A DNA stretch of 64,000 nucleotides from Alphaproteobacteria bacterium (lineage in GTDB: Bacteria; Pseudomonadota; Alphaproteobacteria; Bin95). Shown in pieces: positions 22,516 to 57,319 of this stretch (the first letter of the stretch is position 1; each line of letters opens with the position of its first letter). The position numbers were made by a program, and so were the translations under genes. Where the stretch lies: the NCBI GenBank assembly GCA_964291285.2, contig OZ219787.1, positions 1,984,001 to 2,048,000 on the forward strand. The letters run 5' to 3'. Below the pieces are notes generated by a model that saw only the letters and a list, made by a program, of their open reading frames with translations, did not search any database and was not told the DNA's origin.

Positions 22516-22558
22516 TTGCAACGATCCCGGATGGATTTATTTTGTTCTTTATTTGTGC
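22516..22558 (+). promoter_or_regulatory. Putative sigma70 promoter with LexA-like box
   Basis: TTGCAA-N16-TATTTT followed by GTTC-TTTATTT-GTGC (22544-22558), one mismatch to GTTC-N7-GTTC, in an AT-rich patch. Confidence 0.5.
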
Positions 22559-22592: not shown

Positions 22593-23291
22593 ATGGCGAA
22601 GGCCTATTCCCCCGACCTGCGCAAGCGGGTCCTTGCAGCCGTGGCGGAAGGGATGCCGCTTGCGGAGGCGGCGGAGCGGTTCCGGGTCAGCGTGCCGAGC
22701 ATCGTGCGCTGGCGCGCGCTCGAACGCGGGGGGCGGGGCGTCGGGCCGAAACCGTTCGCCGGGGGCCGGCGGCCGGTGCGGGTCGAGGCGGCGCGGGATA
22801 CCATCCTCGCCCTCCTGCGCGAAAATCCGGGCCTCTCTACCGAAGCCCTGCGCGCGGCGCTGGCGAAGCGCGGCCTCGTCTTCAGCTACGGCTCGCTCTA
22901 CCGTTTCCGCCAACGCCACGGCGTCCGGCGCCGCGAAGACCGCTGCGAGGCGCGGGTGGGAGCGGCGCGGGAGGCGATCTTCGCCCTTATGAGAGGAAAT
23001 CCGGGCCTCCCGACCCGCGCGCTCCGCGCAGCCCTGGCGGAGCGCGGCTTCGTCCTGGACTACGGCACCCTCCACCGGTTTCTCGCGCGCCACGGTTTGA
23101 AGGGCAAGAAGGCGGGCCGGCAGGACGGTCCGGCTGCCGGAAACGGCCGTACCGGCCCCCGGGCTCTTGCCGACGACCTGCGGCAGCGGATCGTTGCAGC
23201 CGTGGCGGCGGGGATGTCCTATGCGGAGGCGGGCCGGTTGTTCCGCGTCAACCCGGTCACCATCGCCCGCTGGCACGGGCGCCGGCGGTAA
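22593..23291 (+). CDS. IS630-transposase-derived multi-HTH protein lacking a DDE domain
   Basis: MAKAYSPDLRKRVLAAV..AAERFRVS..VRW; two copies of the second HTH; C-terminal repeat of the first HTH (DDLRQRIVAAV..AGRLFRVN..IARW); GGAGG RBS. Confidence 0.8.
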   Translation: MAKAYSPDLRKRVLAAVAEGMPLAEAAERFRVSVPSIVRWRALERGGRGVGPKPFAGGRRPVRVEAARDTILALLRENPGLSTEALRAALAKRGLVFSYGSLYRFRQRHGVRRREDRCEARVGAAREAIFALMRGNPGLPTRALRAALAERGFVLDYGTLHRFLARHGLKGKKAGRQDGPAAGNGRTGPRALADDLRQRIVAAVAAGMSYAEAGRLFRVNPVTIARWHGRRR

Positions 23292-23330: not shown

Positions 23331-23613
23331 CCGAAACGGATTTTCGAGGCCCGCCCCGAGGGCGCCTGCGCTCGACCGAAACGGACTGTTCGCACCGGCC
23401 TCCGAGGCAACCCATGCCGGGGCGGAGACGCCGAATCCGGCCGTCCGGAAACAGGGCGATGCTCAACCGAAACGGATTTTCGAGGCCTGCCCCGAGGGCC
23501 CTGCGCTCGACCGAAGCCGGCTGTTCGCACCGGCCTCCGAGGCAACCCATGCCGGGGCGGAGACGCCGAATCCGGCCGTCCGGAAACAGGGCGATGCTCA
23601 ACCGAAACGGATT
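23331..23613. repeat. Tandem repeat, units of 136 and 135 bp plus a 12-bp partial third unit
   Basis: Units start with CCGAAACGGATT at 23331, 23467 and 23602; bodies nearly identical. Confidence 0.92.
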
Positions 23614-23761
23614 GCCGCCGGCGGCGGGCGCACGTCGCCGGTTGCTCTGCGGGAGCCCCTTTCGCCCAGGCTTTCCTGCCGCAGCGATCCGCCGCGACCG
23701 TTCGTCAGGGTGGCAAGTCCTTCATCCGCTTCGTCCCCGCCCGTTCCTCCGGTCCGCCCCT

Positions 23762-53495: not shown

Positions 53496-54821
53496 ATGAC
53501 CGCAACCCGCCAGCTCCGGTTAGGGGCGTTCATGCGCCCGGTCAGCATCCATACGGCGTGGTGGCGCTATCCGGGCAGCGCGCCCGACGCCAATTTCAAC
53601 CTCGGCCATCTGGTCGCGTTCGCCCGGACGCTCGAACGCGGATGCTTCGATGCGTTCTTCATGGCCGATCACCTTGCGGTGCTCAACATGCCGATGGAGG
53701 CGCTCAAGCGCAGCGCCACCGTCACCTCGTTCGATCCGCTCACGCTGCTGCCGGCGCTGGCGATGGTCACCGGGCGCCTCGGCCTCATCGCGACCGCATC
53801 GACCACGTTCGAGCCGCCCTATACGGTCGCCCGGCGGTTCGCATCGCTCGATCACATCAGCAACGGGCGCGCAGGCTGGAATCTCGTCACGACCTCGAAT
53901 CCGGATGCCGCGCTCAACTTCGGCCAGACCGGGCAGATGGCGCACGCCGAGCGTTACCGCCGGGCCCGTGAGTATTACGATGTAGTGACCGGCCTGTGGG
54001 ACAGCTGGGCCGACGACGCCTTCACGCGCGATGTCGGGACGGGGCAGTTCTTCGATCCCGACCGGCTCCACACCCTGGACCATCGCGGCGAGTTCTTCTC
54101 CGTGCGCGGACCGCTGAACATCGCCCGTCCGGTGCAGGGCTGGCCGCTCATCGTGCAGGCCGGCGCGTCGGAGGCGGGCCGGCAGCTCGCAGCGGAAACC
54201 GCGGAGATGGTGTTTACCGGACAGGGCACGCTGGCCGAGGGTCAACGCTTCTACGCCGATGTGAAGGGCCGGATGGAGCGCATCGGGCGCGATCCCGACC
54301 ACATGAAGATCCTGCCCGGCGTCCTTGTCGTCATCGGGGACAGCGTCGAGGAGGCGCGCGAAAAGCGGGCGTATCTCGACAGCCTGGTCAACGAGGACAG
54401 CGCGATCGCGAGCTTGTCCATCGCGCTCGGGCACGACGCTTCGGCCTTCGACCCGGACGGGCCGCTGCCAGAGGTGCCCGAGAGCAATGCGAGCAAGAGC
54501 GGCCGGGAGCGCGCCATTGCGCTCGCACGGCGCGAAGGGCTGACCGTGCGCGAGCTCGCGCGCCGTCTCGGCGGCTATTCGGGGCTCGCCATGGTCGGCA
54601 CGCCGGCCACCATTGCCGATGAGATGGAGCACTGGCTCGAGGCCCGGGGCAGCGACGGCTTCAATGTCATGTTCCCTTACCTGCCCGGCAGCCTGGACGC
54701 CTTTGTGGACCGGGTCGTGCCCGAGTTGCAGCGCCGGGGCCTCTATCGCCGTGCGTATGAGGGCGCCACGCTGCGCGAGAACCTCGGCGTGCCGCGTCCG
54801 CCCAACCGGTTCTTCCGGTAG
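53496..54821 (+). CDS. LLM flavin-dependent monooxygenase (NtaA/SnaA/DszA family)
   Basis: FMADHL, ARRFASLDHISNGRAGWNLVT, QAGASEAG, VPELQRRG. Confidence 0.92.
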   Translation: MTATRQLRLGAFMRPVSIHTAWWRYPGSAPDANFNLGHLVAFARTLERGCFDAFFMADHLAVLNMPMEALKRSATVTSFDPLTLLPALAMVTGRLGLIATASTTFEPPYTVARRFASLDHISNGRAGWNLVTTSNPDAALNFGQTGQMAHAERYRRAREYYDVVTGLWDSWADDAFTRDVGTGQFFDPDRLHTLDHRGEFFSVRGPLNIARPVQGWPLIVQAGASEAGRQLAAETAEMVFTGQGTLAEGQRFYADVKGRMERIGRDPDHMKILPGVLVVIGDSVEEAREKRAYLDSLVNEDSAIASLSIALGHDASAFDPDGPLPEVPESNASKSGRERAIALARREGLTVRELARRLGGYSGLAMVGTPATIADEMEHWLEARGSDGFNVMFPYLPGSLDAFVDRVVPELQRRGLYRRAYEGATLRENLGVPRPPNRFFR

Positions 54822-55032
54822 GATTTCGCAACAACCGCCGAACGCTGCCGCATGACCGCGCCGCACACGCCCCCGACGGAGGGGCGCACAGGTATGACGG
54901 ACAGGAGGGGTGGACCGGGAACACCGCGCGGCCCCGAAAATCCCCGACCGGCCTCGCCCGATGGCTGAACCAACCGGACAGCAGTGGAACAAGTCCGGGC
55001 ATGACGGGAAGAGGAGGATGGCGGTATTTTTT

Positions 55033-55066
55033 CTTGACTTTATCCCCGATAGTTCTATATAAGTTC
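55033..55066 (+). promoter_or_regulatory. Sigma70-type promoter overlapped by a perfect alphaproteobacterial LexA box
   Basis: CTTGAC-N16-CTATAT; GTTC-TATATAA-GTTC at 55052-55066 covers the -10. Confidence 0.7.
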
Positions 55067-55295
55067 CATTCCGGTGCACGGAGAGAGCGAGGGAATGACC
55101 TGACGGGCTATCGGGCCGGACGCATTGCGGCGTCCGTTCCGGCGCGAATTTCGAAGGAAACTGCCGGCGGCCGGGGGCCGGGCGGCAAACCGGCGAGATG
55201 CGCGCGCCGCGATAGCCGGCGATGCGTTTTCAGGCCGTTTGAGTGCGTCGATTGGCAGGTCGGGTTGAACCGGCGGGGACGGAAAGGGGCAAGGC

Positions 55296-55727
55296 GTGGC
55301 GGAAGGGCCGGAAGACGGGTCGGAGAAGTCCGGGCGGGGCCGGGCGGTCGGCATGGCGTTGCGGAGCCGGGCGGTGGCGGCGGTGCTGGAGGAGGGCATG
55401 AGCACCCGGGCGGCGGCGGCGCGGTTCGGGCTGAGCGCGCCGAGTGTCAGCCGCTGGGTGAAGCGTTTCCGCGAGCGCGGACATGCGCGGCCGGATGCGC
55501 GCGGGGGGAGTCTCTCGCGGGTGGAGGCGGAGCGCGACCGGATCGTCCGCATCCTGGAGGCGCGCCCGGAGCTGTCCAGCCGGGCGCTGGGCGAGGCGCT
55601 GGCCGCAGAGGGCGTGCGGTTCGCCGACCGGACCCTGCGCGGGTTCCTCAAGCGCCACCGGATGGAGCGCCGCCGCCGTCTCGCCGTCCGCCGCCAGCGG
55701 AAGCGGTGGAAGGCAAGCGGCGGTTAG
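55296..55727 (+). CDS. IS630-transposase-derived HTH-only protein
   Basis: ALRSRAVAAV..MSTRAAAARFGLSAPSVSRW..EARPELSSRALGEALAAEGV..TLRGFLKRH; no downstream DDE frame. Confidence 0.78.
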   Translation: MAEGPEDGSEKSGRGRAVGMALRSRAVAAVLEEGMSTRAAAARFGLSAPSVSRWVKRFRERGHARPDARGGSLSRVEAERDRIVRILEARPELSSRALGEALAAEGVRFADRTLRGFLKRHRMERRRRLAVRRQRKRWKASGG

Positions 55728-55832
55728 AAGGCACCCGCTGGCCTTGCCGGGTGGGCATCCGCCCTCCATTCGCCGCCCCCGCGCCCCGGCGGGAACCTGC
55801 TCCGAACCGTCACCCCGGACTTGCCTGCCCCA

Positions 55833-55984
55833 TCCCTTATCCTGAGTAGCGACCGCGCCAGCGGGCGCGTATCGAAGGACCGCCCTGAGCCTGTCGAAGG
55901 GGACCGCCCCGAACTGCCGGCAGCCGTCCTTCGATATGCGCCGGCCTTCTCAGGGCGAAGGCCGGCGCTACTCAGGATGAGGGA
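55833..55984. repeat. Palindromic REP/MITE-like element, copy 2 (inverted relative to copy 1)
   Basis: TCCCTTATCCTGAGTAGCG...CGCTACTCAGGATGAGGGA; nested CCTGAGCCTGTCGAAGG; left arm matches the reverse complement of the copy 1 right arm. Confidence 0.85.
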
Positions 55985-56140
55985 CGCCGGGCGGCCGATC
56001 CGAGCCTCGATTCCGCCGGCCCCTTCGCAACCCGGTTGAACCCGGGCCGTGCGCTCTGTCCGCAAACCTAAACCGGACAGCAGTGGCGTCGATCCGGGTT
56101 CGGGCATGGCGGGCGGCGCGGTTGGGCATTACGCTGCGGC

Positions 56141-57319
56141 ATGATCTCAGCGAAACCGCGCCCGGATGAGCCGCCCTGCATCGCCGGGGCGCGCGCCCTC
56201 GGCGACACGATCCGGGCGCACGCCGAGGCCATCGAGCGCGACCGGCGCCTGCCCGATGCGCTCATGGACCGCCTGCACGAGGCCCGGCTCGCCCGGATGC
56301 TCCTGCCGCGCTCGGCCGGGGGCGACGAGATCGCGCCGGGCGTCTATCTCGACACGCTGATCGAGCTCGCGCGCCATGACGGCTCGGTCGGCTGGAACAT
56401 CTTCGTGGCCAACAGCGCCGCGCTCCTCGCCGCGTTTCTTCCCCTCGACGCCGCGCGCGAAATCTATGCCCGCCCCGACGCCCTGATGGCCTGGGGGCCG
56501 CCCGATTCGCACCAGGCCCGCGCCGTCGAGGGCGGCTACCGGGTGGGCGGCGAGTGGAGCTTCGCCTCGGGCTGCCGCCACGCCACCTGGATGGGCGCGC
56601 ATTGCCAGGTGCTGGAGCCGGACGGGTCGCTGCGCCGCAACAGCGCCGGCCGCCCCGCCATTCGCAGCCTGCTGTTCCCCGCCGGGCAGGCGCAGCTGCT
56701 CGACGACTGGAACCCCATCGGGCTGCGCGGGACCGGGTCGGAAAGCTACCGCGTCGAGGACGTGTTCGTGCCCGAGCGGTTCAGCGCCACGCGGGAGGAG
56801 CCGGCCGAGCGCCGGGAGCCCGGTCCCCTCTACGCCTTTACCCAGCAAAGCCTCTATGCGGTCGGCGTGGCCGGGGTCGCGCTCGGCCTCGCCGATGCCA
56901 TGCTCGATGCCTTCTTGGAACTCGCCCGCGGGAAGACGCCGCGCGGCCTCGCGCGCCATGCCGAGAGCCCCGGGGTCCAGGCGGAGGTCTCCCGCAGCCT
57001 CGCGCGCCTCGGGTCGGCCCGGGCGTGGCTGGTGGAGACCGTCGATGCCGTTTATGACAGCGCGCAGGACATTGCCTGTATCGACGTGCCCACCCGGGCC
57101 CGCGTCAGGCTCGCCTGCAGCCACGCCATCCAGGGCGCGGTGGAAACGGCCGCGGCGCTTTACCGGCTCGCCGGCGTCGACGCCATTTTCCCCGGCAGCG
57201 CTTTCGAGCGGCGCTTTCGCGACATCCACACGCTGTCCCAGCAGATCCAGTCGCGCCCGCAGCATTTCGAGGCCACCGGCCACGTCCTCCTCGGCGGCGC
57301 GCCCGAGGTGTTCTACTAA
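56141..57319 (+). CDS. Acyl-CoA dehydrogenase-like flavin-dependent hydroxylase (HsaA/HpaH type)
   Basis: DGSVGW, WSFASGCRHATW, WNPIGLRGTGS, ERRFRDIH. Confidence 0.88.
   Translation: MISAKPRPDEPPCIAGARALGDTIRAHAEAIERDRRLPDALMDRLHEARLARMLLPRSAGGDEIAPGVYLDTLIELARHDGSVGWNIFVANSAALLAAFLPLDAAREIYARPDALMAWGPPDSHQARAVEGGYRVGGEWSFASGCRHATWMGAHCQVLEPDGSLRRNSAGRPAIRSLLFPAGQAQLLDDWNPIGLRGTGSESYRVEDVFVPERFSATREEPAERREPGPLYAFTQQSLYAVGVAGVALGLADAMLDAFLELARGKTPRGLARHAESPGVQAEVSRSLARLGSARAWLVETVDAVYDSAQDIACIDVPTRARVRLACSHAIQGAVETAAALYRLAGVDAIFPGSAFERRFRDIHTLSQQIQSRPQHFEATGHVLLGGAPEVFY

Follow-up and report, generated by a model that had tools for sequence, protein, structure and literature searches.

The InsA protein of IS1 and the OrfA proteins of IS911/IS3 consist of the DNA-binding N-terminal portion of a transposase, produced in the absence of its catalytic portion; they bind IS ends, repress the transposase promoter, and inhibit transposition. 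An active IS carries their genes and is at the same time their target. The genes that we describe here likewise specify the DNA-binding part of a transposase without the catalytic part, but they stand alone, number about 40, have diverged, lie behind a predicted SOS operator, and have no cognate IS that can be seen in the genome. SOS regulons, in turn, are thought of as small sets of single-copy genes for repair, mutagenesis, and division, and the LexA operator of alphaproteobacteria is the direct repeat GTTC-N7-GTTC. To our knowledge, the SOS regulons described for alphaproteobacteria consist of DNA-repair, mutagenesis, and cell-division genes, each present in a single copy. A literature search that covered listings and the openings of abstracts returned no description of LexA-box-fronted HTH-only IS630 derivatives.

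The locus under study lies in a 64,000-nt window, the whole stretch of DNA that was analyzed, from the genome of an uncultured alphaproteobacterium, and comprises an HTH-only ORF at position 55296 with its upstream region (Table 1). This locus belongs to a set of about 40 copies, scattered over the genome, of a small cassette of about 700 bp, which is laid out as a -35-like hexamer, a LexA-type box over the -10-like hexamer, a leader of about 180 to 230 nt, and an ORF of 140 to 160 aa encoding a bipartite HTH. On the strength of sequence comparisons, we consider it probable that the locus belongs to a lineage-specific multicopy family in which a LexA-box promoter, a folded leader, and an OrfA-like HTH-only ORF work together in the way proposed below. 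The earlier note had counted two paralogues, which falls far short, as the genome holds 43 family members. The leader was detected in 35 copies by iterated nhmmer and in at least 27 by covariance model among the 150 candidates scored. Paralogues are 50 to 80% identical. The family is expanded solely in this uncultured alphaproteobacterial genus, where genomes carry between 0 and 43 copies; two complete genomes (100% completeness) have none.

Table 1. Positions within the window of the features of the 55296 cassette and of the related 22593-type locus
Feature	Position	Strand	Remarks
-35-like hexamer CTTGAC of the cassette promoter	55033..55038	+	columns of 1.3-2.0 bits across 114 distinct cassette rows
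LexA-type operator GTTCTATATAAGTTC	55052..55066	+	overlaps the -10-like CTATAT/TATATA (55055-55061)
Core of the conserved structured leader	55079..55223	+	small hairpin around ATGACCTGA, stem-loop I, long composite stem-loop II
Most conserved leader block CATGACCTGAC	55094..55104	+	columns of 1.5-2.0 bits
HTH-only ORF, 143 aa: bipartite HTH and basic tail, no DDE	55296..55727	+	GTG start
LexA-type box GTTCTTTATTTGTGC of the 22593-type subfamily	22544..22558	+	21.6 bits; putative promoter spacer
22593-type HTH-only ORF, 232 aa	22593..23291	+	internally duplicated HTH modules; internal repeats D1 and D3
Degenerate leader-like element, convergent with the 22593-type gene	23610..23733	-	R2 25.4 bits, E 0.0018

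The description of the 55296 product as an HTH protein with a basic tail and no DDE domain, given in the earlier note, is borne out by domain searches. Pfam returned HTH_23, HTH_28, and HTH_32 together with a weak PAX match, and zero matches to a DDE domain, while the NCBIfam IS630 model NF033545 aligned only over its positions 3 to 123 of 299, with 56 bits against a cut-off of 100. Neither an A7 run nor a DDE frame is present after 55727. The GTG start lines up with ATG in the paralogues, and homologues range from 113 to 190 aa, mostly 138 to 160 aa. Among 26 diverse members, 30 columns are invariant, including those of both recognition helices. When an AF2 model of moderate confidence (pLDDT 72, pTM 0.41) was compared with the PDB, the paired domains of Pax5, Pax6, and Prd came out on top (E, 4e-3 to 9e-3), and the DNA-binding domains of SETMAR and Tc3 were also among the matches; zero of these structural matches reached an E value of 1e-3. 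The domains matched are bipartite HTH DNA-binding domains of the paired/Tc1-mariner type, which occur within larger eukaryotic proteins or in complete transposases.

The sister genomes G007 and G010 hold the closest complete relative of the family, an active IS630 element of the frameshift type with a length of 1,056 bp. This element has TA-flanked ends, orfA, an A7 slippery site, and a DDE orfB, and at least five copies of 98.7 to 99.3% identity are present in G007. Its OrfA is 45% identical to the 55296 protein over 105 aa (E, 5e-21) and 51% identical to the 22593 protein over 115 aa (E, 1e-33). Like OrfA of this type of IS, the cassette protein comprises a bipartite HTH of about 140 aa with a basic end at the point where the IS has its A7 slippery site. 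Furthermore, the left-terminal sequence of the IS, CATGATCTGACCTGA, resembles the most conserved block of the cassette leader, a likeness noticed post hoc that was not significant in an HMM comparison of the block with the IS end (E, 4 to 8). In contrast to the IS, the cassette lacks orfB/DDE, a slippery site, and TA-flanked terminal repeats, whereas it owns a LexA-box promoter and a 200-nt structured leader that are both missing from the IS; a LexA box is absent from the left end of the 1,056-bp element. Also, the cassette copies are old and diverged, whereas the IS copies are near-identical. We found neither OrfB of the related IS nor any other catalytic partner from this closest IS clade in the genome, and the resident IS630 transposases show an N-terminal identity of only about 32%, so that a role in the control of a cognate IS has no visible target here. 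By coordinate comparison, none of the 32 DDE_3 matches of the genome adjoins a paralogue, except for one neighboring independent IS copy. A search among proteins of 252 to 2000 aa found no fused full-length relatives, which is weak evidence.

Upstream of the ORF, the sequence GTTC-TATATAA-GTTC, a perfect GTTC-N7-GTTC direct repeat, sits on the -10-like hexamer of CTTGAC-N16-CTATAT, with all features where the earlier note had placed them. The distance from CTTGAC is 16 nt to CTATAT or 17 nt to TATATA, and 229 nt separate the box from the start codon. The box overlaps conserved hexamers of the -35-like and -10-like kind. The call of the cassette promoter is based on hexamer conservation across more than 100 copies rather than on similarity to the E. 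coli consensus; a strict sigma-70 consensus scan of positions 54800 to 56200 found zero promoters. Taken within the window by itself, a perfect box could be expected by chance, as two are present where 1.14 are expected and 35 of 100 shuffles reach two. Likewise, the 111 perfect boxes found genome-wide compare with about 107 predicted by arithmetic from base composition. By the same arithmetic, about 4 boxes with an A/T-rich spacer would be expected in the genome and 20 are present, 11 of them in the conserved cassette promoter context. The exact 15-mer of the 55052 box occurs six times in the genome.

The identity of the boxes as LexA operators of this lineage, which the earlier note had taken from general knowledge of the class, is supported by the SOS genes of the genus itself. 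A perfect GTTCTA(T/C)ATT(G/A)GTTC is found upstream of lexA in 18 of 18 genes from 17 genomes, and GTTC-N7-ATTC, with one mismatch, upstream of recA in all 17. Perfect boxes also precede genes that we take, from a reading of N-terminal sequences, to be imuA-like, MCGR-type SOS-response peptidase-like, and mmcB-like. When both boxes of the window were scored with a matrix from 10 non-cassette SOS gene sites, the 55052 site reached 25.5 bits and the 22544 site 21.6 bits, compared with 25.6 bits for the operator of lexA itself and 22.6 bits for that of recA. Among the 32 cassette promoters of the 55296 type in this genome, 21 score at least 18 bits and 24 at least 15 bits, whereas all 26 full-length IS630 5' regions and all 300 random windows stay below 15 bits, a clearly positive outcome of the enrichment comparison with full-length IS630 that the earlier note had proposed. 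LexA control of the cassettes is nevertheless predicted not to be universal, given that 8 of the 32 fall below 15 bits in this genome and that 19 of 105 cassettes across genomes have three or more mismatches in the box.

Possibly, GTTC-N7-GTTC in the cassettes is just an A/T-rich part of the promoter or the site of another regulator, for example the HTH protein, and has nothing to do with SOS control. Part of the conservation seen in the box is accounted for by the -10 that it overlaps, and the eight cassettes without a good box do retain TATATA. We nevertheless consider this reading very unlikely. The same 15-mer class is the operator of lexA in all 18 genes, also in genomes that have no HTH family (G001 and G003, which still carry the lexA and recA boxes), and hence the motif is independent of the HTH proteins. 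One lexA paralogue of G007 even carries exactly GTTCTATATAAGTTC. Moreover, the second half-site, which lies downstream of the -10, retains 0.7 to 1.3 bits in the cassette rows, compared with 0.0 to 0.5 in the 15 columns that follow, and the promoter of the 22593-type genes is built differently yet has the box, at another place.

An 11-site matrix placed cassettes at all ten of the best sites in the genome, and 21 of the top 25 sites belong to cassettes or 22593-type genes. The cassettes appear to make up most of the predicted DNA-damage regulon of this bacterium. As in the known alphaproteobacterial SOS regulon, the same direct-repeat operator lies over putative core promoters, and lexA, recA, and the imuA-like gene carry it here too. 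What differs is that, of the 25 best sites, 20 lie before paralogues of a single family derived from a transposase. In a 6-Mb genome, then, the strongest predicted LexA sites mostly stand before a single expanded family that is catalytically empty; if the cassettes indeed form a regulon, "the SOS response" would have a different role in this lineage.

The leader between promoter and ORF is the second element that sets the cassettes apart from the IS. Covariance model R2 scored the leader core of the 55296 locus at 143.9 bits, and a loose pattern for the CATGACCTGAC block, with variant bases allowed, matched 98 of 105 deduplicated cassettes. In alignment A4, 88.7% of the cells were paired, compared with 36 to 54% in slid controls, none of 500 shuffles was as good, and compensatory changes occurred at 21 of 30 pairs. 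For alignment A5, with 77 distinct sequences, the paired fraction was 81.2% (38 to 48% in slid controls) and compensatory changes were seen at 29 of 30 pairs, in 257 cells compared with 98.5 +/- 7.5 (0 of 500 shuffles). The covariation was counted on alignments fitted to the structure of the model, which biases the counts toward that structure. The fold was derived from a curated seed and covariance models; RNAalifold gave no structure when all copies were aligned simply with MAFFT or nhmmer, the single-sequence fold of the leader was no better than shuffles (z = -0.5), and Rfam had zero matches in 54800 to 56200 at E values up to 1. We regard the leader as a candidate RNA motif, represented by about 100 natural variants and showing covariation that can be measured; alternatively, its hairpins could act at the level of DNA instead of RNA. 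A protein-coding leader was rejected, as indels that are not multiples of three and the block-wise conservation argue against it. A small candidate uORF, ATG-ACC-TGA, has GAGG only 1 to 4 nt from its ATG; its variants keep an in-frame stop (MT, MIWI, MTWT), an SD-like word at canonical spacing precedes it in 45 of 105 copies, and we treat the block as a nucleic acid motif. For an intrinsic terminator or attenuator in the leader, there was one weak site at 55205 to 55221, and the count of 2 does not exceed the 1.2 +/- 1.1 of shuffles.

The earlier note had called the system host-integrated, which the comparison with sister genomes makes doubtful. Cassette C5:113526 is missing from G006 and G014, where a gap of 31 to 40 nt is found, and in G000 this cassette has replaced the terminal codons of the gene upstream; cassette C3:1818577 is missing from G012, G007, and G005. 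At the 55296 locus, the promoter and two thirds of the leader are gone from the G006 orthologue, and only the last 58 nt of the ORF remain in G012. Judged from these sites, the cassettes behave as discrete modules that come and go from one sister species to the next, which is closer to the pattern of a mobile or selfish module than to that of fixed host genes. Close copies are homologous from about 12 nt before the -35 to the final codons, with no inverted ends; the close-copy comparison revealed no terminal inverted repeats, and no target duplication was found where filled and empty sites were compared. The hairpins, together with the absence of terminal inverted repeats and target duplications, had suggested mobilization by Y1/HUH transposases (IS200/IS605, RAYT), an idea rejected because Y1_Tnp is absent from the genome and from 15 of 16 relatives. 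Neither do the cassettes look like a mobile SOS promoter with downstream cargo, as 12 neighbors are co-oriented and 12 convergent (24 callable), with unrelated functions. A PADLOC search for defense systems yielded only generic HTH noise.

Such gain and loss also bears on the view that the proteins are domesticated host transcription factors, constituting a second regulatory tier within the SOS response through which host genes are switched on or off, with the multiplicity serving as dose. The recognition helices are conserved across paralogues, the genes are fronted by LexA boxes, and the genome has no catalytic partner, all of which would fit. A host regulator, however, is normally single-copy and syntenic, whereas species of this one genus carry anywhere between 0 and 43 copies, two complete genomes have no copy, orthologous sites are empty in sister species, and no conserved neighbor or target was found. 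We therefore regard this view as quite unlikely.

Could the cassettes instead be decaying relics of an extinct IS630-type element, that is, orphan orfA pseudogenes that inherited promoter and box and have no present function? The copies are dispensable, as illustrated by the lost promoter in G006 and the 58-nt remnant in G012, and the copy number ranges from 0 to 43 inside one genus. Nei-Gojobori dN/dS values are 0.17 to 0.4 for several close pairs and exceed 1 for others, with a median of 0.63 that is not clearly below 1; the estimate, distorted by the extreme GC3, gives no clean sign of purifying selection on the ORFs. In contrast, internal stops were present in just 3 of the G000 matches listed (43 members in all), the length is held at about 140 to 160 aa in many genomes, and 30 columns are invariant. 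Furthermore, old paralogues of 50 to 80% identity retain the hexamers, both half-sites, and compensated leader helices, which neutral decay would erase. An origin of the present-day cassettes as mere relics thus seems highly improbable.

In the reading that we favor, that of a LexA-controlled cassette family, transcription would start from a sigma-70-type promoter that is occluded in undamaged cells by LexA bound to the box over the -10. RecA-stimulated cleavage of LexA would then derepress 20 to 30 cassette loci together. Because the recognition helices are conserved across paralogues, the result would be a burst of one kind of sequence-specific DNA-binding protein, the translation of which might be limited or timed by the folded leader. 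More speculatively, the protein may bind the CATGACCTGAC block in the leader DNA, perhaps a relic of an IS end, and thereby exert feedback repression. Equally speculatively, it may serve as a non-catalytic competitor or repressor at related IS630 ends, like the OrfA/InsA-type proteins.

A more far-reaching version of this scheme, which we consider unlikely as a whole, would have a transposase-derived gene become fused to an SOS promoter and an undescribed RNA leader, spread to about 40 sites without a transposase of its own, and now constitute most of the LexA regulon. Its damage-induced repressor would silence incoming or resident IS630 elements, or remodel the genome at a repeated target, and the leader would form a new class of cis-regulatory RNA. 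The heritable "IS immunity" that the cassette protein might confer would be reminiscent of the repressor-only derivatives of eukaryotic transposons. The family may represent a natural case of transposase-domain domestication in bacteria or of repressor-only selfish spread. Sister genomes still hold the active parent-like IS, and this transition is thus open to comparative study. Likewise, since the elements are short and can be synthesized (a 15-nt operator, a 145-nt leader, and a 143-aa protein), the scheme is testable in vitro or in a surrogate alphaproteobacterium, although the host is uncultured.

The second LexA-type box of the window, GTTCTTTATTTGTGC, belongs to the 22593-type subfamily and lies 35 nt upstream of the ATG at 22593, with one mismatch (GTGC). 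The earlier note had the coordinates of this box right but put it directly after the -10, whereas an alignment of six paralogues places it between the -35-like and -10-like elements; we infer that it occupies the spacer between a -35-like TTTAC(A) and the -10-like hexamer. Across the genus, 21 of 27 HTH-only genes of this type have a box of at least 15 bits at a fixed position, -48 to -56, compared with none of three DDE-bearing relatives. Inverted repeats around the 22593 gene were considered as an invertible switch, and nothing convincing was found. The degenerate leader-like element that converges on the 22593-type gene of the window has counterparts at three other 22593-type genes in the genome, with E values of 5e-5 or lower.

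The earlier note described, at 55 kb, a CTTGAC hexamer, a LexA-type box overlapping the -10, a leader and an HTH-only ORF, all of which we find at their coordinates (see table). HTH_23, HTH_28 and HTH_32 are the sole domains of the encoded protein, which matches positions 3-123 of the 299 in the NCBIfam IS630 transposase model with a score under the cut-off. A strict consensus promoter scan over this region found no promoter, which counts against an SOS reading. The proposal of two such paralogues proved far too modest: a whole-genome search of the window's genome (G000; replicons C1, C2, C3 and C5) at E <=1e-8 yields a large family of 43 HTH-only loci, and tblastn 45 related ones. An iterated nhmmer profile of promoter plus leader retrieves 35 copies of what we call the cassette (boxed promoter, structured leader and HTH-only ORF), and a covariance model 27 among 150 candidates scored. 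A set of about 26 genes in the genome, distinct from the HTH-only genes, encodes genuine IS630 transposases that do have DDE domains; the N-termini of these resident transposases are about 32% identical to the 55296 protein. By coordinate comparison in G000, no DDE domain adjoins an HTH-only gene, bar one independent IS copy beside C3:951463. Database homologues measure 113-190 aa, mostly 138-160 aa, the fullest name among them being 'helix-turn-helix domain-containing protein', and a database search for longer relatives found none, which is weak evidence. One duplicated segment lies on two replicons in inverted order (C2:1421806-1424876 and C3:2195042-2198112); besides an HTH-only gene it holds one GC-rich GTTC-N7-GTTC string twice, and the copies of the segment score identically.

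Coordinates of the principal features (window positions unless a replicon of G000 is named)
Feature	Position	Details
-35-like CTTGAC	55033-55038	
LexA-type box	55052-55066	GTTCTATATAAGTTC; overlies CTATAT/TATATA -10-like hexamer
Leader gap		229 nt from box to start codon
HTH-only ORF (55296)	55296-55727	GTG start, 143 aa
LexA-type box	22544-22558	GTTCTTTATTTGTGC; 5' of 22593 ORF
HTH-only ORF (22593)	22593-23291	ATG start, 232 aa
Leader-like element, degenerate	23610-23733 (-)	
Leader-like element, degenerate	C1:904656-904782 (-)	
Leader-like element, degenerate	C1:1101849-1101965 (-)	
Leader-like element, degenerate	C3:1335922-1336054 (+)	
lexA	C3:1242759	upstream box GTTCTATATTGGTTC, reverse orientation
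recA	C2:931753	upstream box GTTCCTGAAATATTC
L207, first gene		61-aa ORF, no Pfam match
L207, second gene		N6_N4 DNA methylase, E 1e-45
L207, third gene		BglII-like restriction endonuclease, E 6e-35

Perfect GTTC-N7-GTTC strings are not improbable by themselves, with 2 observed against 1.14 expected in the 64-kb window and 111 against about 107 estimated from composition genome-wide. What goes beyond chance is the context of the boxes, not their number. Among the perfect boxes, 20 have an A/T-rich spacer, and 11 of these share one conserved setting, in the order TTGAC, about 13 nt, box, about 25 variable nt, the block CATGACCTGAC and a conserved leader, and an HTH-only ORF follows in 10 of these 11. 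GTTC-N7-GTTC is the alphaproteobacterial LexA motif, and the comparative result stands without this background: perfect GTTCTA(T/C)ATT(G/A)GTTC occurs at all 18 lexA genes in 17 genomes of the genus and GTTC(C/T)(T/C)GAAATATTC at 17 of 17 recA genes, including those of G001 and G003, two genomes of the genus without any member of the HTH family.

The earlier suggestions to score both sites with a matrix from SOS-gene promoters and to compare HTH-only with full-length IS630 genes were both rewarded. The matrix was built from 10 distinct non-cassette sites, namely lexA and recA variants and sites at genes that we take, from N-terminal sequence alone, to be imuA-like, MCGR-peptidase-like and mmcB-like. 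It gives 25.5 bits to the site at 55052-66 and 21.6 bits to that at 22544, against 25.6 bits for lexA's own site and 22.6 bits for recA. Among 32 cassette promoters, 21 reach at least 18 bits and 24 at least 15, compared with none of 26 full-length IS630 5' regions (maximum 8.9) and none of 300 random 320-nt windows (maximum 13.0) at the lower threshold; the operator match is thus specific to the HTH-only genes. With an 11-site matrix, the top ten sites of the whole genome are all cassettes, and 21 of the best 25 belong to cassettes or to the second HTH-only subfamily (22593-type). Per-column information in an HMM-anchored alignment of 114 distinct rows is 1.3-1.9 bits over the first half-site, 0.7-1.3 bits over the second, beyond the -10, and 0.0-0.5 over the next 15 columns. 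Mismatches to the eight defined box positions in 105 deduplicated cassettes from at least 10 genomes numbered none in 32, one in 37, two in 17, three in 15, four in 3 and five in 1, with a mild bias since the best placement within a 16-nt range was chosen. A good box is missing from about one cassette in four, which counts against universal LexA control. On these comparisons, the cassette box is a predicted LexA operator of this lineage.

Three further sites were noted. The operator of a second lexA gene in sister genome G007 (L177, G007:C3:5303691-5303876, minus) matches the cassette 15-mer at every position. Another site, GTTCGTATAAGGAAC, a palindrome, lies some 20 nt 3' of the main lexA operator (e.g., G000:C3:1242720-1242735); most of the 18 lexA genes across the genus retain it with minor variation. 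Finally, a perfect box, GTTCTTTGAATGTTC, at C1:992432 (minus) stands 5' of a 220-aa ORF whose N-terminus by eye resembles an HTH/S24-type repressor, distinct from canonical lexA.

The seven 22593-like genes of G000 have a short leader and a promoter built differently from that of the cassettes, cTTTACAATATTC-N7-GTTCTA or TTTATTTTGTTC-N7-GTGC, with the box within the spacer in both forms. Thirty loci of this type were compared across 13 genomes of the genus. A site scoring 15 bits or more fronts 21 of 27 HTH-only genes, and one scoring 18 bits or more fronts 16; its place is fixed, 48-56 nt 5' of the ATG. The three loci with a DDE frame behind them lack a box (maximum 7.3 bits). L231, a further locus that scored as HTH-only, has no box and a left end of the IS type, and it resembles a decayed IS. 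The 22593 ORF itself is internally duplicated, with its second HTH module at 22775-22921 and 22949-23095 (75% identity) and its first at 22613-22719 and 23174-23280 (74%), a layout A-B-B'-A' that differs from its paralogues of 125-141 aa. Directly downstream of four of the seven genes, on the opposite strand and facing the gene, lies a degenerate leader-like element (see table), and a fifth gene has a weaker one (E 0.046); these could reflect nested insertion, what is left of another IS end, or an antisense organisation.

The cassette leader did not match Rfam, and its single-sequence fold was no better than shuffles (z = -0.5). For a 13-sequence seed (A3), a structure was curated from RNAalifold and the minimum-free-energy fold. 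It comprises a 3-bp hairpin that encloses the conserved block's ATGA, stem-loop I, and a long stem-loop II, itself a composite of an apical hairpin and two outer helices. Covariance models were built twice in succession, the first aligning 34 leaders and the second 89, from 92 sources. In the first alignment (30 distinct leaders), 88.7% of cells are paired against 36-54% in slid controls, and 21 of 30 pairs changed on both sides; in the second (77 distinct), 81.2% are paired against 38-48%, and 29 of 30 pairs changed on both sides, in 257 cells against 98.5 +/- 7.5, with 0 of 500 shuffles as good in either case, although fitting to the model biases all these counts towards its structure. The leader, with its compensated helices, is a candidate new RNA motif; hairpins in single-stranded DNA would also fit these counts.

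Relatives of the 22593 protein with identical scores in sister genomes G007 and G010 belong to a 1,056-bp IS630-family element (L238-L246). Its ends, TAGAGC...GCTCTA, are flanked by TA, and between them lie orfA (138 aa), an A7 slippery run and a DDE orfB (188 aa). At least five copies in G007 (C3) are 98.7-99.3% identical, and four in G010 are about 89% identical to these. The element is apparently active in sister genomes. At least one copy is inserted in a palindromic target. The OrfA encoded by the element shares 51% identity with the 22593 protein and 45% with the 55296 protein, and through this kinship the HTH-only family corresponds to OrfA of a frameshift-type IS630 clade. The IS has a DDE orfB and, on searching, no LexA box, whereas the cassette is boxed and lacks an adjoining DDE domain. 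No orfB of this clade was found in G000, and the want of a cognate IS there counts against a role in IS control. The IS left end, TAGAGCATGATCTGACCTGA, resembles the most conserved leader block, (G)CCATGACCTGAC, with the common variant CATGATCTGGA(C/T)CTGA; the leader HMM places its block on the terminus in all five G007 copies, at non-significant E values of 4-8, and we treat this likeness, spotted post hoc, as a lead. If real, the block would be what remains of a transposase-binding site, in which the HTH proteins would have a natural target.

In 26 diverse aligned members, 30 columns are invariant, including both predicted recognition helices and the basic C-terminal tail; since the recognition helices do not vary, the paralogues probably share a DNA target. 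An AF2 model of moderate confidence (pLDDT 72) finds its best PDB matches in the paired domains of Pax5, Pax6 and Prd (E 4e-3 to 9e-3, short of significance by the tool's threshold), with the DNA-binding domains of SETMAR, Tc3 and CENP-B lower in the list, consistent with a paired-like bipartite HTH. The dN/dS of the HTH-only ORFs is equivocal, which counts against the proposed SOS reading.

The 37 genomes of the order fall into three genera, and only in the window's genus has the family expanded (14 of 16 other genomes, 2-40 copies); single weak matches occur in 3 of 10 genomes of a second genus, and it is absent from all 10 of the third. Of 80 related records from the genome collection, 79 are titled 'MAG: Alphaproteobacteria bacterium' and one bears the title of a Chloroflexi MAG. 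The paralogues within G000 are old (50-84% protein identity), and sister genomes differ in what they hold. At the 55296 locus, G006 has a 97% identical orthologue with the promoter and first two thirds of the leader deleted, and G012 retains no more than the ORF's final 58 nt. The C5:113526 cassette is absent from G006 and G014, with 31-40 nt instead, and G007 and G012 have a different gene there; in G000 its 5' end replaces the last codons and stop of the upstream gene, which makes the filled site the derived state. The C3:1818577 cassette lies between convergent genes that only 36-50 nt separate in G012, G007 and G005. In the five closest copies, homology extends from about 12 nt 5' of the -35 into the last codons or, in three, to about 35 nt past them. 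Neither terminal inverted repeats nor target duplication were found at cassette copies or filled and empty sites, nor was a Y1 transposase in G000 or in 15 of 16 relatives. Genome comparison thus reveals a module gained and lost with no transposase of its own seen. Its neighbor genes are unrelated in function, 12 co-oriented and 12 convergent.

Taken together, LexA would repress the cassette promoters, and DNA damage would derepress 20-30 of them at once; the leader may tune translation of a protein predicted to bind DNA without catalysis. More speculatively, this protein might bind the conserved leader block for feedback. It may also compete or repress at the ends of related IS630 elements, as IS1 InsA and IS911 OrfA reportedly do at IS ends. 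The LexA operator, the OrfA-like transposase fragment and the structured 5' leader are each of a known kind; what appears new is their combination in about 40 diverged stand-alone copies, each with a predicted SOS promoter and a conserved leader, which together dominate the predicted LexA regulon of the genome and apparently spread with no transposase of their own. The portions of the literature reached by full-text search contain no description of such an SOS-boxed HTH-only cassette family.

Elsewhere in G000, at L207 (C1:955600-958400, minus), a cassette-type promoter with the LexA-type box GTTCGTTTTAAGTTC at C1:958205, together with the leader's first ~100 nt, precedes three genes and no HTH gene (see table); this may be an SOS-controlled restriction-modification system. 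REP-like short palindromic repeats crowd the intergenic DNA round both window genes (54972-55014, 55740-56100 and 23331-23613), examples being a block starting CCCCATCCC..ATCCTGAGTAGCG and a 135-nt tandem pair. They recur at many sister-genome sites with 79-100% identity, and the same element types adjoin other cassettes.
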